Source: a virus. From it: 16,402 nt of DNA. A model generated the notes under the pieces. That model was given only the letters and a program-made list of their open reading frames with translations, ran no database searches and was not told the DNA's origin. Of this stretch, positions 996 through 13,455 are shown piece after piece. Position 1 is the stretch's first letter; every line of letters begins with the position of its first letter. The stretch spans positions 128,001 through 144,402 of the IMG/VR virus record IMGVR_UViG_3300021256_000064; one strand, given 5' to 3'. The position numbers and the translations under genes were made by a program.

Positions 996-1481
996 TTAAA
1001 AATCAAGACCTTGATATAAAACTCTTTGATTTCTACTGCCACGTAATTCAAGTGTAATATCTCTTTCTGCATCAATATAAGGGCCGTCTATTAGAACATC
1101 AATTTGAGACAATATGTGATTAATTTTATCATTATGTTTCTTTTTTAAATCTTCTAAAAGGTAGCCTGTCCAAACAAAAATTTTAATTTGCGGGAAAGCA
1201 GCTCTTACACTTGTAATAATTTTATCAACTTCTTCTAAATTTTCTTCACATAAGGGTTCTCCCCCTAAAACAGAAAAGTTTCTTGTAATATTATTTGCAC
1301 AGATTGCTTTAATAATTTGTCCTCGTATATCAGTGGGTACCTCTTTGCCGCCATTAAAACTCCATGTTTCAGGATTTTGACAACCTGGGCAATGATGTGG
1401 ACAACCTTGTGTCCAAAATGAGACGCAAGTGCCAGTCCCATTTGCGAAGTCATTTTTTATTAAACCTGCATATCTATCCAT
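996..1481 (-). CDS. nrdG: anaerobic ribonucleoside-triphosphate reductase activating protein (radical SAM)
   Basis: 161 aa. N-terminus is GLIKNDFANGTGTCVSFWTQGCPHHCPGCQNPETW, i.e. the NrdG-type CxxxCxxC radical-SAM cluster motif. GAGGAG RBS upstream. Stop is TAA. It sits immediately downstream of nrdD and the FNT gene. Confidence 0.9.
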   Translation of the reverse strand: MDRYAGLIKNDFANGTGTCVSFWTQGCPHHCPGCQNPETWSFNGGKEVPTDIRGQIIKAICANNITRNFSVLGGEPLCEENLEEVDKIITSVRAAFPQIKIFVWTGYLLEDLKKKHNDKINHILSQIDVLIDGPYIDAERDITLELRGSRNQRVLYQGLDF

Positions 1482-1483
1482 TT

Positions 1484-2044
1484 TTATTTACTTAACTCCT
1501 CAATTAATATTGCTCCTAATGAGTTACCAAGAACAATAAGTATAAATTTAAAAATATTTATTAAAGACAAATTGAATAACAGATAAGGAAAATCTGCTAT
1601 ACAATGCTCTGCTCCAATAAGAATAAAAATCATAATCGCAAAAATTGTTAATATAGTTACTTTATTTTTTACAGCAAAATGAATTAACATTCCACAGAAA
1701 GTAGCGTTTACAAATAAAGTTAATGCACTTTTGGTAAATTTAGTTGCACTAGACGCAGATATAATATTAACAAAATCTGGATTTCCTAAAGCATAAAGAC
1801 CTATTGTAGCTGCTATTGCAATACAATTAAATAATAATATTGTAATTAAGATTTTTTTCTATTCTAATGTTGGTTTAGAATAGAAACCAATTTTTCCAGT
1901 AAATAAATTTAATTGCATATTAATTATTGTTAAAAGTCCAAAACTAAATAATAAAGCTCCTAAAGCAGGGATTGAAGATTGAAGGTTAATAATAACCCCC
2001 AATCCAATTAAGATTCCCGCGAGAGCCGATTTTTTAACACACAT
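1484..2044 (-). CDS. formate/nitrite transporter (FNT)-family channel-like membrane protein, 186 aa with one in-frame TAG at 1859..1861
   Basis: Track ORFs 1859..2044 and 1484..1690 are in the same frame. I translated the gap and it contains a single TAG and no other stop. The joined protein is a hydrophobic multi-TM protein. It has the FNT hallmark motifs NLFTG (compare FocA GADLFTS) and GAEHCIADF (compare FocA GFEHSIANMF), plus a C-terminal LGNSLGA. It is shorter than FocA (~285 aa). The start overlaps the nrdD 3' end by 11 nt. Stop is TAA, 2 nt before the nrdG ATG. Confidence 0.55.
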
Positions 2045-4361
2045 AATCTTCCACTGCTCCCATATAACGACGTTGTCCTCTTAGTAAAGATGAATGCTTA
2101 AATCTCATTTCTGTTTCCTGTTGTTTTCCAAGATTAAAGGCTGTTTTATAATCTCCTGTTAAATAGCCTGTAACTCTACGCAATCTCTATATATTTGTTC
2201 CTCCGCACATTGGACATTCATTATTAATTTCTCCAGTGTATCCGCAATTTAAACATAAATCATTAGGAACATTTAATGCGAAATAAGGAATATCTTTATC
2301 CATAGCATAATTAACAATTTGTTCAAGTGCATCAATATTATGTAAGATTCCACTATCTAATTCTACATAAGTAATGCATCCTGCATTTGAATACCCAGTT
2401 AGTTGACTTTCAATATCAATCTTTGTAAATGGGTCAATTTCTTTCCAAACTGGAACGTGAATACTGTTAGTAAAGAACTCTTTATCACTTACATTAGGAA
2501 TTTCTCCATATTTTTCTTTAAATTTTTTCATGGCAGTATAGCATAAATTCTCAGCAGGAGTATAATAAACACCAAAGTTAAGTTTATATTTTTGTTTATA
2601 TTCCGCGCATCTGTCTTTAAATAATTGTTCAATACGTTTGGCAAGTTCCATACCTTCATCTGTTGTATGGTCTTTACCTATAAGTATTTGAAGAGTTTCT
2701 GCTAAGCCAAGTTGACCAAGAGCTAATGTGCCATGTTTAAGCGCGGATCTAATTCCTTCTTCAGGTTTATAACCTAACATGGTATTATTTTCCCACATAA
2801 ACTTTGCAGATTCAGGAGATTGAGAACAGATATATTCAAATCTTTCAATTAACATATCTTTAGCTTCATTAATTTTTTGATCAAGTAATAACATAAAATA
2901 TCCAATAATATTAGGATCATTTATTCCAATATTTTTTGTCCAACGATAATTAGCTTCCATAGCAAGAGTTGGAAGAATAATTGTTACAGGACAAATATTA
3001 CCGCGCCCGTCTTTACGCTGTGGATTTACACCTGGTTCTACATTTATATCTGCTCCATTAGCCGTACGGCATCCCATTGTAGAGAAATATGTAGTTGGGT
3101 CATTTTTGTCATAACCTGCATTTCCGCTCCAATCAACATTAGCGTAATTTGGATATAATCTTTTTGCTGTTGATTCAAGAGCTAATCTGTATAAATCATA
3201 ATTTGGAGTTCCTGGTTCTTTATTAACTCCTTTCATTACTTGGAAGATTCCACAAGGAAAAATTGATGTTTTATGGAATTTACCATTTCCTTTTATACTG
3301 CCTTCAAGTAATGCTTTAATAACCATTCTTCCTTCTGGAAGAGTACAGGTCCCATAGTTAATTGAAGTAAAGGGTAATTGATTGCCACTTCTACTTTGTA
3401 ATGTATTAAGATTATGATACATACCCTCAACCGCTTGTTGAAGCTATTTAACTGTCATATCCATAGCATATTGGTATGCTTTTTTATATTTTTGATATTC
3501 TAAATTATCAATACTAAAATTATCAGAATATTGGTTACGAATATTTATAAATTTTAAATGGCTTCCATTATTTTCTTTATTATAATATAAATCTGATGAT
3601 AATTCTATATATCTTAATCCATCAATATAATGTTTCCAAAAACTTTTTCTTACATAAGGAACCATTGTCCAATCTAAGTGAGTTGCTGATACGCCTCCAA
3701 ATTGTTGTAAACTTTGTAATTGAAATATTACTGCAACAAGTTGAAAAGCTGTATTAATTGAGTTTGCTGGTCTTACGTCTGTTTGACGAGTATTAAATCC
3801 TTTCGCTAATAAATCATCAAAAGGCACTGATAGACAATTATGCATACCAACTGCATATGTATCTAAATCATGAATATAAATTTCATTATTTAAATGATTT
3901 TCTCTAGCCATTTTTGACATACAATTATCAAGAGCGTATTGTTTGGAAATAATTGAATCAAATTCCCCGCGGCGACCACCAAAGGAATGTTCATCAACAT
4001 TAGCATTTTGATTATCAATTTTAGAACCTGCAAGTTTTTCTTGCGCTGCCCGCATCATTTTATTATTCCAATTTCTTTCTCTTGTTCTTTCTTCGCGATA
4101 TTTAATATACGCTTTTGCTACATCTTTTCTTTTTGTAGACATTAATCCATTTTCTACTAAGTCTTGAATTTCTTCAATAGATAATGGATGAGTTTCTTCT
4201 TCACAGTAGCCTTCAATATAATTTGCTATATTCTATGCTTTTGTTTCAGCATATTCAGAAATCTACCCATCTACTGCTTTAAAAGATTTTAAAATTGCAT
4301 TTTTAATTTTTTGTGTATCAAATGGCATTTGTCTACCATCTCTTTTGATTATATAAATCAT
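2034..4361 (-). CDS. nrdD: anaerobic (class III) ribonucleoside-triphosphate reductase, ~775 aa, with four in-frame TAG codons (4263..4265, 4233..4235, 3444..3446, 2187..2189)
   Basis: Track ORFs 3444..4142 and 2187..3422 are in one frame and joined by TAG. Upstream of 4142 the same frame continues through two more TAGs to ATG 4361..4359, with GGAGGA RBS. The N-terminus MIYIIKRDGRQMPFDTQKIKNAILKSFKAV...EEIQDLVENGLMSTKRKDVAKAYIKYREER is an ATP-cone that aligns with E. coli NrdD (VMKRDGCKVPFKSERIKEAILRAAKA...INEIQTAVENQLMS...ARAYIEYRHDR). Downstream of TAG 2187 lie the glycyl-radical motif LRRVTGYL and the NrdD C-terminal tail NLGKQQETEMRFKH. The C-terminal Zn cysteines are CLNCG...CPMCGG. Final stop is TAA 2034..2036. 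Confidence 0.85.
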
Positions 4362-4429
4362 AATATATCCTCCTAGTTAGATAAAATATTTTTAGGGTTA
4401 CTATATATTATAAAAAACTTTTAATAAAA

Positions 4430-4819
4430 TTAATCATTTTTGTCCAATGTATTATTCTCATCTTTAGGGTAATGGAAAGTCTTTTTTCCTTGACGCCATT
4501 CTAAATCACACATTTCTGGAAATTCTTCTTCCATTTGCAGCGCTCCTAATATATTAAATGCAGCAGCTGCTAAATGATCCTCATCATCCCACCCCGCAAT
4601 ATATTTAGCTAAATGTCTTAAAGCTGAATCAAGAAAAGACGACAATGGAATCCCTTTTAAATAATTAAAACGCCCATATTTTTTTGCGCCCTCTTCATAG
4701 AGCTTAGATAAACGTAATAATGCCATCATGGGGAGAGAGAGCATATCTCCCTTCCCTTCATGCATGTCTCTAACCGCTCCTGTGTTGAACTAAGTTCTTT
4801 CTCCAGAATCTTTTATCAT
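4430..4819 (-). CDS. putative phage dNTP pyrophosphohydrolase-like protein (dATP/dGTP diphosphohydrolase N-terminal-domain family), ~129 aa with in-frame TAG at 4790..4792
   Basis: The track ORF starts at an internal ATG (4765). The same frame extends through TAG 4790..4792 to ATG 4819..4817. That ATG is preceded by AAAGGAG (complement of + 4829..4835) with an 11-nt spacer. The resulting N-terminus MIKDSGERT*FNTGAVRDMHEGKG matches what I recall of the conserved N-terminus of this phage family (DSGxRxEFxTGAxRD...GKG). The family call is from memory and should be checked. Later in the protein are YEEGAKKYG and DDEDHLAAAAFNILGA. Stop is TAA. Confidence 0.55.
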
Positions 4820-4824
4820 AAATA

Positions 4825-7800
4825 TTAAATCTCCTTTTCTGTTGAAATTCTTTCATGTTCTAATGTAATATTTTTGTTTGTTACATTTGTAATTCTATAT
4901 AACTGATGTGTTGGTGTTGATTTATAAGTTTTTGCTACAAAAGTATCTTCTCGCCTAAATCCTGTAATTAAAACTTTTGTACCACGAGAGAACCAGCCTT
5001 TTTCTAATACTTTTTTAGTACCATCTGGTTGTTTTTCAGAAATTTGACGATTAAACATAGCATAATATTCTTTTGTAAATTTTACATTTACAACTCCATC
5101 TGTCGTTAAAATAGCGATAGATGCTTTAGTATTATTTTTACTAATAATTGTTCCTGCAATCCTATATAATTTAAAGATTGGAATTTTTCTATCTCCTCTT
5201 TTAAAGAAATAATCAACTACTGGTTCTTCTGATAAAGATGAAAAATCTACAATACCATATTTATATTTATCAATATTAGCTAATTCATGTTCGTGATAAT
5301 AAAAACACAAACTTTCCATTTCCCACGCAGAAATATTTCCAGTTGCATATTTATTCCATGTTTCATTAAATAATAAATTATTATATTGATTTAATACTTC
5401 ATCTTGATTCTCTTTTAACCAGTTTCTTGCTTCATCCATTTCTTTTTGATAGATTTTATCCCATTTAGTTTGAAGAATACAAGTAATTCCATTAATAACA
5501 TCAAGTTCATTTAAATCATAATATTGTGAATAAAAATTTAACGAACCTTCATCAAATATATAATATTTACCAACTTTTTTATTATCTTTAAGAAATTTAT
5601 TAAATACAAATACTTGTTTTTGTTTATTTAATTCTTCTGGTACTAAACCACTTTTTAATAATCCATTAAAATTTTGTAAAGTTAATCGCTTTTTTGGATC
5701 ACAAACTAATGATACATAATATGCCATAATTGCATATCTTGGATTTTCTTTACAAATTTCTGATGCCCAATCATTATCAACCTTATCAAAAGCTCCTGAT
5801 TTAATTAACGAAATCATTTGAGTTTTATTTAGCGGGCATCTATTCATAAAATCAATAATTCCAGTGTATGGGCGGCCGCCAATAATCTTATCAATAACTG
5901 GTCCACCAATTTTATTAACACCTTTTAATCCAAAAAGAATTTCATTATTTTCTTCATCTGGTTCAAAACTGTATCCAGATTTATTAATATCAATTAATGA
6001 TACTTTAATTCCTTTTGAAGTTATATCTCCAATAGCTTTTGCTAATTTAGAATAATCAGTAGATTTATCTTTAGTATTGTCCTCATCATCATCTTCATCA
6101 TCATCTTCAAGAGAAGCACTATTAATGATTAGACATGCAGTATTCCAATAAATTGGATTCCAATTAGTCGCTAAATAAATTGTCTGAACTCCAATAAAAG
6201 AATATGCAAGAGCATGAATGATAGAGAATGAATATCCCATCTGAGGACCAACACCGCATTTCCAAACATACTTACCAAGAGATGGACTAGAAGCTGTATC
6301 TAATATCTTTTGATGTAATTCTGGAATTTTTGCCATTTGTTTTTTACCAACAATTTTACGTGCGGCATTAGCTTCTTTTAATGAAAAATTGCAAATGTTT
6401 TCATCCATCAACATTCTCATTAACTGCTCTTGTGATGGTGGAACTCCATAAGATTGTTTGAAATATGGTTCAATAAATGTTTGTTCTTCTTTTGTTAAAC
6501 CTGCTCGATTCATTTCTTGATACCATAATGAAATATTATTTTTATAACGAATATATTTTTCCATAGGTGTCTCTTCACCCTTTTCAGATGTCATAAGACG
6601 CATTAAGCCATTGGCATCCGCCATTTCAAGAATATTAGTTGGTTTAATTTTCTTTGCGGCTTGTGATCCCACATCTGAATCAAACTGGAAAACATTTAAG
6701 ACACTATTATTTTGAAGAGCTTCCCATATTTTTTTATTCTCTAAAGGCAAAACTTCTGGATGAAGATATTTATTATATACCTCTCTTAAAGAGAGGTCTT
6801 TATCAATTTTATTATTTTCCTGAAGAAGTTTAATTGTTTGAACAATCTTATCCTGAACTTCTGTTACCAAGAAGTCATATTTTGTCATACCGCATGCTTC
6901 ACATTTATGAAGATCCCATTGAGTTATAATTTCACCTTTTGGAGTTTTCATAAAACATCCAAATTCGTATGGATCTTCATCAAAAAGAATAACACCAGAA
7001 GCATGACTAGACCTTTTATTTATCAACCCTTCAATTGCCATCGCAATATCTAATAAACCAGGATATAAATTAATTTCTGAAATAAAAGGCGCGATAGGTT
7101 TTCTATCTTTATCTTTATTCCCATATACAACATCTTTAAGAGGCCATAAAAAACCTCTCTCACTTGGAATTAAAGAAGATAAAAACTGAGCTGTATCAAC
7201 ATCAATCCCGTCTGGAAAATCTTCTGAGCGATAACCGCGGCAAGCTGTTAATACTGCTGATTTAGTTCCTTCTGTACCAAAAGTCGCAATAAGTGTGCAA
7301 CCAAGGTTTTTTCTACTTAAATCATCAATATCTTTATTGAAATTTTGACCTCGTTCTTCTTTTATCTTTTGAAGAATCAATGGACGTTTTGATGGACAAA
7401 GATCTAAGTCTATGTCGCCTAACTCAACACGTTCTTTATTAAGATAACGCCAGAACGGAAGATCCCATTTAATTGGGTCAAGCTGAGTGATGCCTAAAAG
7501 ATAATGATTTAATCCTGAGCAAGATGAACCACGCCCCGCACCAACTGTACTTCCGCACTCCCAAAAAAGATCAACATAATGCTGAAGAGTTATTGGATAA
7601 CTAAACATATTAGTTCCAAGTTTTTCACTAATAGTTTTTTTAATATCTGCTTCTTCTTCTAATCGAGAAAGATATTCTTTTTTATATATATTTTTATTTA
7701 ATAAATTTTGTAAACATTCATTTACCCAATATCTTTCATATTTATCATCAGAAGATAACATATTTCTTAAAGTTGGATAAAATTCTTCAATATTCATATC

Positions 7801-8784
7801 CCTAGATATTTTTGCGTAAGGATAAAAATTTTTACTTTTAGGATAATCTTTTACCTTTACTTTTGGAATTGTCTGTTGATGTCTAATATCATAGTTCTCA
7901 ATCTTATTATAAATTTCATATGAATTATCTACTAATTCATCATAATTTAATTCCGATGGTATAATATTTTCTTTTATGTCATTTTCATCTTGAAGATACG
8001 CATATTCATAAAATGCATCAACTTCACGTTCTCCGCCTTTTGAGTTAAGATATGCTTTATGTACATATCTATCTTCTTTTTTAAGATAATGTGCATCTGA
8101 TCCAAGAACCATTTTACAATCAAAGGCGGCAGCTACAGCTTTAAGACGTCTATTAACAATAACCTGTTCGCTTGATTGACCTGGCGCACACTCGATATAA
8201 AAGTCATCACCAAAAAGACGCTTACACCATAAGATAAAATCTACAATATCATTATGGGCTTCAGCGGCTCCTATTTTGTCATCATGCTTTTCTGCTTTTA
8301 TAAGATTTAAAAGTTGAGAAGAAACTTCTCCACCAAGACAAGCTGTTGTTGCAATTAAACTATTTGGATATTTATTAACAATCTCTTCAAGTTCATCATA
8401 TGTTGTAGGAACTCTTTCAAGACCTCTATCCCAATAACTATTCATCCAAGCTCTTGAAGAAAGCTCTCTTAATGCTCTGAATCCAATTTTATTTTTTGCA
8501 ATCAAAATAAAATGATAATATTTTTGTCCCATCTCTCTATCAGGAGTTAAATATATTTCATTTCCTAATGCAACTTTAAAATCTGGATGCGTCTTTAAAA
8601 TTTCTTGAGCATAGAAGTTTGCTTGCGGAGCACCGCTCAAACATTCATGATCGGTGAGAGCTATCCCACTTAAACCAATTTCTATTGCTCTATCAATAAG
8701 TGCTGGAATTTTATTAATGCAATCTAATAATCTTATGTTTGAAAATTCTGAGTGAGAATGCACCTCAAACCTTTTGACCATCAC
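4825..8784 (-). CDS. dnaE: DNA polymerase III alpha subunit (DnaE-type, PHP domain N-terminus), 1319 aa
   Basis: One uninterrupted ORF. The N-terminal PHP motifs are EVHSHSEFS...IALTDHECLSG. Size is typical for Pol III alpha. An acidic insertion DDDEDDDEDN lies in the C-terminal region. There are no in-frame TAG codons. Stop is TAA. RBS is AAGAGG. Confidence 0.9.
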   Translation of the reverse strand: MMVKRFEVHSHSEFSNIRLLDCINKIPALIDRAIEIGLSGIALTDHECLSGAPQANFYAQEILKTHPDFKVALGNEIYLTPDREMGQKYYHFILIAKNKIGFRALRELSSRAWMNSYWDRGLERVPTTYDELEEIVNKYPNSLIATTACLGGEVSSQLLNLIKAEKHDDKIGAAEAHNDIVDFILWCKRLFGDDFYIECAPGQSSEQVIVNRRLKAVAAAFDCKMVLGSDAHYLKKEDRYVHKAYLNSKGGEREVDAFYEYAYLQDENDIKENIIPSELNYDELVDNSYEIYNKIENYDIRHQQTIPKVKVKDYPKSKNFYPYAKISRDMNIEEFYPTLRNMLSSDDKYERYWVNECLQNLLNKNIYKKEYLSRLEEEADIKKTISEKLGTNMFSYPITLQHYVDLFWECGSTVGAGRGSSCSGLNHYLLGITQLDPIKWDLPFWRYLNKERVELGDIDLDLCPSKRPLILQKIKEERGQNFNKDIDDLSRKNLGCTLIATFGTEGTKSAVLTACRGYRSEDFPDGIDVDTAQFLSSLIPSERGFLWPLKDVVYGNKDKDRKPIAPFISEINLYPGLLDIAMAIEGLINKRSSHASGVILFDEDPYEFGCFMKTPKGEIITQWDLHKCEACGMTKYDFLVTEVQDKIVQTIKLLQENNKIDKDLSLREVYNKYLHPEVLPLENKKIWEALQNNSVLNVFQFDSDVGSQAAKKIKPTNILEMADANGLMRLMTSEKGEETPMEKYIRYKNNISLWYQEMNRAGLTKEEQTFIEPYFKQSYGVPPSQEQLMRMLMDENICNFSLKEANAARKIVGKKQMAKIPELHQKILDTASSPSLGKYVWKCGVGPQMGYSFSIIHALAYSFIGVQTIYLATNWNPIYWNTACLIINSASLEDDDEDDDEDNTKDKSTDYSKLAKAIGDITSKGIKVSLIDINKSGYSFEPDEENNEILFGLKGVNKIGGPVIDKIIGGRPYTGIIDFMNRCPLNKTQMISLIKSGAFDKVDNDWASEICKENPRYAIMAYYVSLVCDPKKRLTLQNFNGLLKSGLVPEELNKQKQVFVFNKFLKDNKKVGKYYIFDEGSLNFYSQYYDLNELDVINGITCILQTKWDKIYQKEMDEARNWLKENQDEVLNQYNNLLFNETWNKYATGNISAWEMESLCFYYHEHELANIDKYKYGIVDFSSLSEEPVVDYFFKRGDRKIPIFKLYRIAGTIISKNNTKASIAILTTDGVVNVKFTKEYYAMFNRQISEKQPDGTKKVLEKGWFSRGTKVLITGFRREDTFVAKTYKSTPTHQLYRITNVTNKNITLEHERISTEKEI
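6082..6110 (-). repeat. short tandem codon repeat (catcatcatctt-like) encoding the acidic DDDEDDDED tract inside dnaE
   Basis: Direct reading of + 6082..6110 (tcatcatcatcttcatcatcatcttc). It is low-complexity and in frame. Confidence 0.5.
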
Positions 8785-8863: not shown

Positions 8864-9029
8864 AGTCATATAAAATAAATATTTAAGCTATCCTGTCCAT
8901 TGGAGTACCCTCCATATTATATTGGTTCAATATGTCAACGAGTTACAATTATTCAAACCATTGGACCGTACCTCTCTTTCATAATATTTATTTCTTACAA
9001 TTATATTATACAAAAAATTTTTTTATTTG

Positions 9030-9605
9030 TCAAATTTTATTTAAATCTTTTTGAGTTGGTATTTCTAATGCTTTTTTATGAATTTCATATCTTTGAGTAT
9101 AAGAATTTAATCTAATATATTTATACCATTTCTTTTTAGAATGAATACATTTATATACAGCTTGTTTTGAGATACCTTTTATATTACAAAAATCAGGGAT
9201 AGAAATAAAATCATTATCATTTTCTTGATTTATTTCTATATTATATGGAATAAAATTTTCTTTTGACATTCTTGGAACAAAATCATTTTTTGATATTGTA
9301 TTATTAATATTAAAATCATTTTCTTTATAAAGAATCCATTCTGGTTCTTTTAATAAAATAGTTGATTTAATGTTTTTAAAAGTTTGATTTAATTTAGGAT
9401 GATATTTTGTAATTAAAAAATATTCAAAACTATTCATTTCTAGCTCATTATTACAATTAAAATAATAAATTTCAAAATTTTTTAAATTTTGAAATTTATT
9501 ATCTTTGCTATGTTCATATAGCCGTCTTTTTAAATTATTTGTTTTTCCAATATATATAATTTTATTCTTTTGAACATATTTATAAATATAATATTTATTA
9601 ATCAT
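9030..9605 (-). mobile_element. free-standing GIY-YIG homing endonuclease gene (191 aa)
   Basis: N-terminus YIYKYVQKNKIIYIGKTNNLKRRLYEH is the GIY-YIG motif. The basic C-terminal tail resembles a NUMOD/HTH DNA-binding tail. The gene is intercalated between the Dda-like helicase and dnaE. Stop is TGA. Confidence 0.8.
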
Positions 9606-11083: not shown

Positions 11084-11539
11084 TTAATTTTCTTCTAATT
11101 TTTTTCCCATTCTTAATTTCATTAAACGACCTACAAATTCCGCTTGAGTTAGAACTGTTTTTGAAGGATCATTCTTTCCTATTGAGTGTGATAATATTGC
11201 TGGGCGGCTAGCCTCTAAAGCTTTTCTAAATCCTTCATTTTGATATAGTGCGTTATAGGCTTTATTTAAAAGAATTTGATATTCCTGACTATCACGTTTA
11301 TATTCTTTACCTTGCCAATATAAAGTTTGTGTTTTCCACCATTTTTTATCTTTTCCTTTATACTTTGCTTTTTTCCCAACTAAAGAACATACATATTTTT
11401 GCATATCAGTATTTTTAAACTTTAAAGATTGCAAAAAGCCTTCCATTGAGTTACAAGGTATCTCATCTATAATAAAAGGATGCGGTGCAAAATTACTTAA
11501 TGAGGCTGCAGGATAACCTGAACCACTTCCAATATCCAT
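11084..11539 (-). CDS. NADAR (YbiA/DUF1768)-like domain protein (151 aa)
   Basis: SLSNFAPHPFIIDEIPCNSMEGFLQSLKF aligns with E. coli YbiA FSNFAAWPIKVDGKTWPTSEHYFQAQKF. The motif ILSHSIGKND aligns with YbiA LVEHTEND. AGGAG RBS and a strong upstream promoter are present. Stop is TAA. Confidence 0.55.
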   Translation of the reverse strand: MDIGSGSGYPAASLSNFAPHPFIIDEIPCNSMEGFLQSLKFKNTDMQKYVCSLVGKKAKYKGKDKKWWKTQTLYWQGKEYKRDSQEYQILLNKAYNALYQNEGFRKALEASRPAILSHSIGKNDPSKTVLTQAEFVGRLMKLRMGKKLEEN

Positions 11540-11673: not shown

Positions 11674-13455
11674 TTAAAAGAAGTATTTAGCAGAATCTAC
11701 AATTTCAAAATCCTACATAATAAGCTGTGGGTAGACGCAACCATTCCACTAATTTTTATTACATTTACAAATAGCGTTTACCTCTAAATATCCTGTTGTT
11801 GTAAATTTGGTAATTTCTTCTTCAGTTCCATTAAATTTAATAATAGATAATCCGTTAGGTAAATTAAATTTTAAAGTATTACTTTTCATAACTTTAAAAT
11901 TAGAATCAGTAACTTTAAAATTAATATTTACATAAGCTCTGTCTATATCTTGACCCCAATAATCATTCATATCTGCAATATCTAAAATGCGCTGATTGTT
12001 GTTTTCTTTTTCATTAAAATTATAATCAATTCTATAAATAGGTTCAACAGAGACATCTTCAAGAAGCTAATCAATCTTATAAAGAAAATCACTTATATGA
12101 TCTGCTTCTATACCAAGTCCCGCCGCATTGTCATGTCCCTATACATATAAAACTCCTGGACATTGTTCAAGTACTTCTTTAAAACTATTAATTCCAGTTT
12201 TTGTATATCCACGCATAGAGCCTTCATAAGTTGCTTTATCATTTCTATTAGTTTTAGTTAATAAACAACAAGGTCTTTGATATTTTGCCATAAATTTATT
12301 TGCAATTAAACCACGAATTTCAGAATCAATTTTATTAGGTTCTAATAAGAATAAAAGAATTTTATGGTCAAGCATATGATTAGTTTCAATCATTTTTTCT
12401 AACATAGCTAATCCTGCATCTTCTGCTCTTGTTTGTCTATTTTTAACATTCGTAACTGTTCTAATTGCCTGTAGAATTAATTTTTCTTTCTAACCTAATT
12501 TATGTCCACGCTTGTTTGAAATAACTTCTGTAAAAGCCTTATGTTTTAACATAGAATTAAAAAGTAAATTTTTCTATTCTATTGTTCCACTTCGAGTTAC
12601 AGCATTAATAAAAGGTACAATAAAAAATGCGGCGCCCATAGATGTACATCTCATATTAGGATCCGATGAAACATAATCTGCTTTTGATAAAGGAAATGAG
12701 TTTTTATCAATCATGTAGTCGATAAAAGGATTTTTAATATTCTATTTTTTGAACCCTTTAGTAATTAAATATCTAGTTTCAAATGAACGTAAAGACATCA
12801 TATCCCCACAGTTCCCTAGTGCAACCAAATCTAAAAAACCATCTGCTAATTTTATATCTAATTGATTATCAATATAACGACAAAATTGCCAAACAACCCC
12901 AACACCAGATAATTCCTTATTAGGATAATCTGATAATTGATTATTAATAATAATAGCATTTTCACTAATATGATCTGCTAAGTGATGATCTAAAACTAAT
13001 ACTTGAATATTTTTGTCTGTTAATATCTTATGATAACTATAATCATTACTACTTGAATCTGGGCAAATCACAAGCATTGGATTACGAGCTAATACAAAAT
13101 CAATACAATCACTTAATCCATGTTGTTTACTATCGTGCATATACCAATCTAAATGATTAACGACCCAAGTGGGAAATATCTTATATAAATAATTAATAAG
13201 AAGAGCTGCAGATGTATAACCATCACAATCACAGTCTACAATTACTAAAGCATCAGCATTTTCTCTTACAGTATTAATAATAGCCATTAAACCATTTTTG
13301 AGATTTGTTTCTCCTAAAGACAACGGGGAATTAATATCCTAATCAGATAGATTTACATAATGTAAAATTTCATCTTCCGCAATTCCTCTATTGTATAATA
13401 TTTGCTGTATTGTTGAAAAATTCTAATTTGGTTTATTTATTAACTAATATCTCAT
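11674..13455 (-). CDS. recJ: RecJ-like single-stranded-DNA exonuclease (DHH + DHHA1), ~593 aa, with ten in-frame TAG codons
   Basis: Track ORFs 12742..13323, 12139..12405 and 11749..11970 are all in one frame. The gaps between them, translated by hand, contain only TAG stops. These are at 13444, 13423, 13339, 12742, 12574, 12490, 12139, 12067, 11749 and 11713. The joined protein shows the RecJ N-terminus ILYNRGI, DHH motif I VIVDCDCDGYTSAALL, DHH motif III VLVLDHHLADH, FINAVTR (E. coli RecJ LNAAGR), and the DHHA1 motif *GHDNAAGLG (E. coli FGGHAMAAGL). ATG 13455..13453 is preceded by AGAGGAG. The final stop is TAA 11674..11676. The last ~25 codons after TAG 11749 are less certain. Confidence 0.75.

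Follow-up and report, generated by a model that had tools for sequence, protein, structure and literature searches.

Why should a phage carry a gene for a small membrane channel inside the operon of its anaerobic ribonucleotide reductase (RNR)? The question is raised by a stretch of viral DNA of 16,402 nucleotides (nt), positions 128,001 to 144,402 of the IMG/VR record IMGVR_UViG_3300021256_000064 (hereafter the window), in which a gene for a 186-amino-acid (aa) protein of the FNT (formate/nitrite-type) family is located between nrdD, encoding the catalytic subunit of a class III anaerobic RNR, and nrdG, encoding the radical-SAM activase of NrdD. All long open reading frames (ORFs) of the window are on the minus strand, and the features described below within these three genes are minus-strand features. 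The answer that we favor, with a probability of roughly 0.6, is that the 186-aa protein is a minimal channel for formate or formic acid that supplies the class III RNR of the phage. What we infer from the context is the substrate (formate), the direction of transport (uptake), a pentameric assembly and a benefit for replication. The locus itself may best be read as one translationally coupled nrdD-FNT-nrdG operon of an SPbeta-like, amber-recoded rumen phage. The component families are known, and it is the combination, a viral minimal FNT inside a class III RNR operon, that was not found described.

The first-pass annotation had assigned the membrane protein to the FNT family from two motifs, and the assignment was borne out by the profile search. 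The protein scored 50.5 bits on Form_Nir_trans (PF01226), for which the cutoff is 34.6 (E = 2.3e-13), over profile positions 24-233 of 240 and within 177 residues, much more than chance would give. Both motifs were located, i.e., NLFTG in the Omega loop (residues 46-50; 1895..1909) and GAEHCIADF in the S loop (residues 144-152; 1589..1615). T49 and L47 of the former correspond to T91 and L89 of FocA, and E146-H147 and D151 of the latter to FocA E208-H209 and N213. K102 (1739..1741), which was invariant in the first alignment of 36 homologues, is the equivalent of the vestibule lysine FocA K156 according to alignments to the NirC lysine and to FocA. A profile-profile alignment (hhalign) to Escherichia coli FocA, covering FocA residues 34-275, further paired F33 with F75, L37 with L79, F140 with F202 and N174 with N262. 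Across 55 homologues 48 columns were invariant, pore residues included; T49 and H147 were invariant throughout, and the equivalents of the FocA pore residues were invariant or nearly so. The hydrophobic constrictions, the vestibule lysine and the structural asparagine N262 of FocA are thus kept, and the structural asparagine N213 is replaced by D151. The roles of these FocA residues were set by mutagenesis, and an N213D variant was functional (PMC9380403).

The predicted fold agrees with this assignment. An AlphaFold model of a 94%-identical homologue (P0001), made with the alignment of 55 homologues, had a predicted local distance difference test (pLDDT) value of 88 and a predicted template modelling score (pTM) of 0.82, with helices at residues 2-22, 26-42, 60-87, 107-127, 130-143/152-157 and 161-185. 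It predicts an aquaporin-like FNT protomer with six transmembrane (TM) helices, of which TM2 (Omega loop) and TM5 (S loop) are broken. When the model was compared with the PDB by Foldseek, the top matches were all FNT channels (HSC, FocA and NirC; template modelling score relative to the query, TMq, 0.76-0.79); LciA was also among the matches, and aquaporins came lower down, as the fold predicts. At the sequence level, a single-sequence phmmer search of the FNT against PDB sequences found nothing, and the family profile matched NirC (4FC4). Clusters of Lys and Arg at the N-terminus and in loops 50-64 and 126-128 fit the N-in/C-in topology of FNTs, and homologues of 174-200 aa form more than 1,100 clusters in metagenomes. 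Judged by sequence, the 186-aa protein belongs to the FNT family, has an apparently intact conduction pathway and is not an orthologue of FocA.

The protein is also truncated relative to FocA, as had been remarked. The N-terminal ~33 residues, ~60 residues from several loops and the C-terminal YLR tail are gone, and the C-terminus reads ...ILIEELSK versus ...VIYLRENDHH in FocA. This bears on the idea that the protein is not primarily a conduit but a membrane anchor or partner that recruits NrdD and NrdG, in a reversal of the FocA-PflB interaction. FocA does bind the glycyl-radical enzymes PflB and TdcE physically (PMC5600444), but the binding uses the N-terminal helix, which the 186-aa protein lacks, and in the latter conservation is highest at the pore residues. 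We therefore consider a recruiting role very improbable.

The second point is the type of enzyme beside which the channel gene lies. NrdD (775 aa; 4361..2034; Pfam and TIGRFAM) matched Pfam NRDD with E = 1.2e-145, carries ATP-cone and Gly_radical domains and scored above cutoff for TIGR02487; its closest solved relatives are the NrdD of P. copri (8P23, E = 6e-113), PDB 9D3X and the NrdD of T4 (1H78). The criteria for a formate-type enzyme were taken from PMC11226230 and PMC4493059. The P. copri NrdD requires formate, and the third cysteine on the sixth strand is absent from it, with Asn435 at this place (PMC11226230); the Met-Cys pair of the thiosulfuranyl mechanism and the bottom-face cysteine criterion were described in PMC4493059. 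In the NrdD of the window, the finger loop has M429-G-C431 (3069..3077), the thiyl-radical cysteine with a methionine two residues upstream, aligned to PMGCRS of T4 and TMGCRT of P. copri. The bottom-face cysteine is present as N175-C176 (3834..3839; N78-C79 in T4), and the motif GRGNICPV (2985..3008) places N455 where the third cysteine would be (N435 in P. copri, N311 in T4), all by alignment. The glycyl-radical motif RRVTGYL (G732; 2160..2180) was found by both Pfam and alignment, the Zn ribbon is present (CLNC...CPMC), and the SCCR motif is absent. C457, two residues past N455, is Ala in some relatives and is therefore not a conserved catalytic residue. The active site (N175-C176, M429-G-C431, N455, RVTGYL) thus has the formate pattern and not the thiol-dependent one, between which the first-pass annotation had left the choice, and on this pattern NrdD is assigned to the formate-dependent class III type. 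With enzymes of this type, each nucleotide reduced costs the oxidation of one formate (Mulliez et al. 1995, cited in PMC11226230).

The activase, NrdG (161 aa; 1481..996), matched TIGR02491 with 149.5 bits against a cutoff of 126.1 (E = 7e-44), has Fer4_12 and Radical_SAM domains, and carries the CX3CX2C cluster motif (C27, C31, C34) at 1380..1403, VSFWTQGCPHHCPGC. As a separate observation, many relatives, among them L001, L003, L004 and L169 (Thomasclavelia phage TR-TP1), have an nrdD in two halves that flank an ORF for a homing endonuclease of the GIY-YIG or HNH type; the nrdD of the window is uninterrupted. To judge from the alignment segments that are missing, the break seems to be close to the finger loop, and such splits probably reflect introns.

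How closely are the three genes connected? The order nrdD, 186-aa protein, nrdG, with an 11-nt overlap and a 2-nt gap, had been reported for this locus, and the coordinates match. The FNT gene (2044..1484; six predicted TM helices, by PF01226 and predicted fold) begins with an ATG at 2044, and the stop codon of nrdD (2036..2034) is inside its ORF, the overlap read directly from the sequence being 2034..2044. The TAA of the FNT gene (1486..1484) is followed by 2 nt and then by the ATG of nrdG at 1481. Among the three genes, nrdD alone has a strong and well-spaced Shine-Dalgarno sequence, AGGAGG at 4369..4374, 7 nt 5' of its ATG. The FNT and nrdG genes are preceded by GGAG-type sites at distances of 12 and 14 nt from the start, respectively. 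The ribosome-binding site of nrdG is inside the channel gene, as first noticed (GAGGAG, 1496..1501), though with the long spacing of 14 nt, which suggests coupling by termination and reinitiation. The spacing of 12 and 14 nt, taken together with the overlap and the 2-nt gap, fits translational coupling of the three genes. No convincing terminator was found between nrdD, the FNT gene and nrdG in a consensus promoter and terminator scan, of which the counts did not exceed those of shuffled sequences and which is thus uninformative.

The full-length reading of the 186-aa gene depends on amber recoding, a point passed over in the first-pass annotation. Under the standard code nrdD would fall into four pieces and the membrane protein into two, and every break is a TAG, none a TAA or TGA. 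The single in-frame TAG of the FNT gene is codon 62 (1861..1859), in the variable cytoplasmic loop before TM3, where relatives have GAA, GAT, TAG or a gap. In nrdD, codons 33 (4263-4265) and 43 (4233-4235) are inside the ATP-cone match, codon 306 (3444-3446) stands in an invariant Glu column and codon 725 (2187-2189) in a conserved Gln column, the NRDD match being continuous across the last two. Because TAA and TGA breaks are absent, the Pfam match is continuous and relatives have sense codons at these places, we conclude that TAG encodes an amino acid in this genome. The same lack of TAA and TGA stops, and homology that is unbroken across the TAGs, led us to reject the view that these ORFs are pseudogenes.

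Which amino acid is inserted seems to vary with lineage. When 166 related loci were pooled, 15 of 37 conserved columns for Gln contained TAG, versus 4 of 52 for Glu and 2 of 59 for Tyr, a pattern like that of code 15. Split by lineage, TAG was confined to Gln columns in loci whose NrdD is 67-72% identical to that of the window, and was mostly at Glu columns in the clade of the window itself. Invariant Glu sites with TAG in this clade are TPAE of NrdD (three loci), GGEP of NrdG (one locus) and codon 306 of the window nrdD. A further 150-kb contig (L221, IMGVR_UViG_3300028591_000104) has three TAGs at conserved Tyr columns (nrdD columns 169, 417 and 425), which are all of its TAGs falling in well-conserved nrdD columns; this suggests that the phage reads amber as Tyr. 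The RecJ-like gene of the window (11674-13455) contains 10 TAGs in 593 codons, of which an 85%-identical, TAG-poor relative shares one as TAG; at seven of the sites it has a Glu codon (GAA or GAG) and at the other two a Gln codon (CAA or CAG). In an alignment of 4,106 codons, TAG stood against 10 of 300 Glu codons and 3 of 148 Gln codons, and against none for Lys, Asp or Tyr; in the clade of the window TAG appears to replace Glu about as often per site as Gln. The view that TAG is Glu throughout, drawn from a small sample, was not upheld by the pooled data and gave way to the lineage-dependent picture.

Amber decoding as Gln, as Glu or as a mixture of both are all three compatible with these data. 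In many Bacillota Gln-tRNA is made by transamidation of Glu-tRNA(Gln), and one possibility is that a suppressor tRNA poorly handled by the amidotransferase would deliver Glu at TAG. The ambiguity has no effect on the conclusion about the FNT, because codon 62 is in a variable loop. Neither the window nor the flanks of close relatives yielded a suppressor tRNA. Elsewhere, an opal suppressor-type tRNA (anticodon TCA) is present near the FNT gene in contigs L044-L046, around 10.8 kb, and an amber tRNA (anticodon CTA) is present in large tRNA arrays near the FNT gene in contigs L059, L062 and L064. The use of TAG is very uneven among replication genes: the DNA polymerase III alpha-like gene (4825-8784; 1,319 codons) has none, as against ten in the RecJ-like gene and four in nrdD. 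A public pipeline's translation renders the TAGs of this clade as Gln.

If the association of channel and reductase has a function, is it found more than once? A scan of IMG/VR with the family alignment returned 96 loci, 80 of which were examined. In 61 of the 80, nrdD and/or nrdG was directly beside the FNT gene, in the order nrdD-FNT-nrdG (44 loci), nrdD-nrdG-FNT (11) or FNT-nrdD-nrdG (1); in the remaining five linked loci a contig end intervened or nrdG was not recovered for another reason. The partner NrdDs ranged from 89% down to 25% identity to that of the window, and M-G-C-R was found at the finger loop in every partner whose segment was recovered in the alignment. Stop/start overlaps were frequent in the linked loci. 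The linkage of which the first-pass annotation had proposed a survey is therefore recurrent in uncultured phages. Contigs with close FNT homologues are 105-140 kb long, carry SPbeta-like genes (YomU/V/W, YorF, YorH and YonG) and have the order nrdD-FNT-nrdG or nrdD-nrdG-FNT. By their sample and contig labels alone, which were not checked, they seem to come from the rumen. The window's gene order, with an identical RecJ-like protein, was also seen in ENA ERZ28612970 (contig SHIW14-1 scaffold_240, L254), which probably represents the source genome or one almost identical to it; its label, taken at face value, hints at sheep rumen.

The linkage was also approached from the side of the reductase, with the 80 closest IMG/VR matches to NrdD (77-92% identity over the C-terminal 411 residues), which gave 79 new loci. 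The FNT gene was in the operon in 30 of them and absent despite sufficient room in 44, and five were cut; in one 141-kb relative, nrdG directly follows nrdD. The FNT gene is therefore an accessory gene that is gained and lost, present in ~40% of close NrdD relatives. Such presence/absence polymorphism is what a passenger gene (moron) without a role in the phage cycle, inherited within one lineage, could show. However, the ratio of nonsynonymous to synonymous substitution rates (dN/dS) of the FNT gene against ten relatives was 0.12-0.32, so that the gene is under purifying selection, and the invariant columns noted above include the pore. Moreover, the FNT gene is found linked to nrdDG in more than one gene order and with partner NrdDs of only 25-30% identity. 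The passenger explanation is accordingly hardly credible to us.

The bacterial homologues give some indication of where the gene came from. In a scan of one genome per species, at least 548 FNT loci were found and 80 were examined. Among the matches listed, the homologues were mostly from Lachnospiraceae, Dorea, Oscillospiraceae, Faecalimonas and other Clostridia; they are short FNTs of ~180-195 aa with 32-50% identity to that of the window. Only 6 of the 80 were near nrdDG. Two of the six are annotated and look phage-derived by their gene content, one (L098) with genes for a RecD-like helicase, NAD-ligase, NrdD, NrdG, FNT and dUTPase, and the other (L092) with genes for a dNMP kinase, NrdD, NrdG, FNT and dUTPase that abut the chromosomal stp-prkC-rsgA-rpe; a third linked locus of the bacterial set (L121) is on a 130-kb contig and has an NrdD of 72% identity. 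Neighbour clustering revealed no conserved functional partner near the stand-alone bacterial FNTs, the best being a CoaBC-like protein at 11 of 80 loci. In a neighbour-joining (NJ) tree, the nrdDG-linked phage FNTs fell in at least eight places among the unlinked bacterial ones, and the prophage-type linked FNTs nested in a Lachnospiraceae clade; the tree has short internal branches and carries no support values, so that its topology is indicative only. The window FNT has up to 50% identity to bacterial stand-alone genes and 30-40% identity to many linked phage FNTs. These patterns suggest repeated capture of FNT genes into nrdDG operons, with the clostridial stand-alone mini-FNTs as the probable source of the phage genes. 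The stand-alone FNTs of ~180-195 aa in gut and rumen Clostridia apparently form a large undescribed subfamily.

Comparison with known systems shows what is shared and what is peculiar to the phage arrangement. In E. coli, focA-pflB-pflA likewise has an FNT gene co-transcribed with those of a glycyl-radical enzyme and its radical-SAM activase, the shared metabolite is formate, and FocA has the Thr/His centre, constriction residues and vestibule Lys in common with the phage FNT. However, the enzyme of the E. coli operon produces formate, whereas the phage NrdD consumes it; FocA has 285 aa as against 186 aa in the phage FNT, which lacks the PflB-binding N-terminal helix and the YLR tail; and focA stands in front of the enzyme genes, whereas the phage-borne gene is between or after them. 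The best structural match to the phage FNT model is HSC of Clostridioides difficile (FNT3, PDB 3TDO; TMq 0.79, ~19-20% identity), which is also a compact FNT but ~70 residues longer than the phage protein. HSC is described as linked to sulfite reduction, and no such context is present at the phage locus. Bacteriophage T4 has a phage-encoded nrdD-nrdG of the same formate-dependent enzyme type and active-site pattern, but the window FNT had no tblastn match in the collection that includes T4. The clostridial stand-alone short FNTs have the same ~180-195-aa architecture but are not linked to nrdDG. Suppliers of reductant for phage RNRs, such as the thioredoxin NrdC of T4 and NrdH-type redoxins, are soluble redox proteins serving class I and II enzymes. 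The supply logic would be the same here, but the phage FNT would be a membrane channel that provides a small-molecule reductant to a class III enzyme.

The first-pass annotation did not recognise the arrangement as a described one. Likewise, full-text literature searches found nothing describing a phage FNT within an RNR operon. Searches of the FNT gene and of the whole window by tblastn and megablast against deposited phage genomes gave no match, and the PHROGs collection had no FNT family match. More distant phage FNT queries against deposited phages recovered only two short unannotated fragments and one gene of Phage Phass-1. The one viral FNT model in the BFVD is of an uncultured siphovirus protein with an automatically assigned name. 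The Phass-1 gene (L170, OQ749652.1 89049-89729, in a published code-15 phage) is annotated as hypothetical; it has 25% identity to a phage FNT (E = 3e-5) and is 27 kb from the nrdD of Phass-1.

How, then, would the channel serve the phage? NrdD, activated by NrdG, would oxidise one formate to CO2 for each ribonucleotide reduced. With the channel as a passage for formate or formic acid through the host membrane, the cytoplasmic formate pool could keep pace with the synthesis of deoxyribonucleoside triphosphates (dNTPs) under anoxia and NrdD would not become reductant-limited during infection; the loss of the PflB-binding helix would suit an ungated conduit. A genome of ~125-140 kb and a burst of 50-100 would call for 1-3 x 10^7 dNTPs and as many formates. 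This would be a demand of tens of mM-equivalents per 1-fL cell, well above the typical pool. In the rumen, formate is turned over rapidly.

Several points weigh against this proposal. The substrate of an FNT is not readable from its sequence, and NCBIfam equivalogs for FocA and NirC did not match the 186-aa protein. The equivalent of FocA N172 is G118 in the HMMER alignment to NirC versus H122 in the hhalign alignment to FocA, Gly being a natural variant at this position (PMC9380403), and the acidic D88 position is Asn or variable. The N-terminal helix and the YLR motif are absent, and the latter is reported as necessary for FocA function (PMC5572259). The best structural match is HSC and not FocA, by a small margin. 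No conserved link to pfl or fdh was found among the 80 bacterial loci. The absence of the gene from 44 of the 74 close NrdD relatives with room marks it as dispensable, and 19 of the 80 viral FNT loci are not beside nrdDG. Among deposited phages, the window FNT had no tblastn match in a collection that includes 2,804 records with a gene for an NrdD homologue, and the closest cultured NrdD, that of Thomasclavelia phage TR-TP1 (67% identity), comes without an FNT. Finally, many candidate hosts probably make formate by pyruvate formate-lyase, so that a need for import is not evident.

Some of these points would also suit a channel for another small anion or weak acid (nitrite, hydrosulfide, bicarbonate, lactate or acetate), whose placement in nrdDG would reflect early-gene timing and whose role would be general host manipulation, e.g., of pH, proton-motive force or the efflux of fermentation products. 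The same Thr/His centre is found in FNTs for nitrite, HS-, lactate and bicarbonate, and the closest fold and the missing equivalog match point the same way. Viral FNT genes without nrdD are near replication genes, a transporter-like membrane protein or tRNA arrays, and no formate-related neighbours were seen at these loci; the bacterial homologues lack such neighbours as well. Nevertheless, 61 of the 80 viral loci have the FNT gene directly adjacent to nrdDG, across three gene orders and very different NrdD lineages. Such adjacency is hard to explain without a shared metabolite, and NrdD uses no FNT substrate other than formate. Another substrate is thus an unlikely explanation, though the main rival to ours.

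The direction of transport is a separate matter. The likely hosts, Clostridia, are commonly formate producers, and an outward channel or valve that prevents cytoplasmic acidification or tunes NrdD might be proposed instead of import. According to PMC9380403 and PMC8914244, FNTs conduct formate both ways, with proton-coupled uptake at low external pH, and FocA exports formate in fermenting cells. However, exporting the reductant of a co-translated enzyme has no obvious advantage, and without the N-terminal helix the known control of efflux by PflB is lost (PMC5600444). We regard an efflux role as quite improbable, and uptake of formate for NrdD is still the reading that we prefer.

Other genes of the window were noted in passing. 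Directly upstream of nrdD, a 129-aa protein (4430-4819, minus strand) has the N-terminal domain of a dATP/dGTP diphosphohydrolase (PF18909, E = 5e-17), and in relatives this slot is taken by a guanylate kinase instead. A free-standing GIY-YIG endonuclease gene (9030-9605) lies between the RecD-like helicase and polymerase genes, and the stretch 9001-9500 around it is extremely AT-rich (GC content 0.17). A strong homologue of T4 gp30.3 (PF08010, E = 5e-55; 11084-11539) is located within the SPbeta-like replication module.

If the proposal is true, the 186-aa protein would be the first FNT channel to be described from a virus, and its gene the first auxiliary gene of a phage to supply the small-molecule reductant of a class III RNR. 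As a minimal FNT, it could help to separate the parts of FocA needed for conduction from those needed for regulation. Formate would then be a possible limiting resource for phage replication in anoxic gut ecosystems. The wider proposition, that formate limits anoxic phage DNA synthesis and that gut and rumen phages have repeatedly captured host mini-FNTs to tap external formate, is tentative and in our view rather doubtful as a whole. It would nevertheless link rumen viruses to the formate turnover that feeds methanogenesis. Infected cells would be formate sinks, converting formate to CO2 at one per dNTP, so that infection by viruses would rival methanogens and acetogens in the use of an electron carrier that is important between species.

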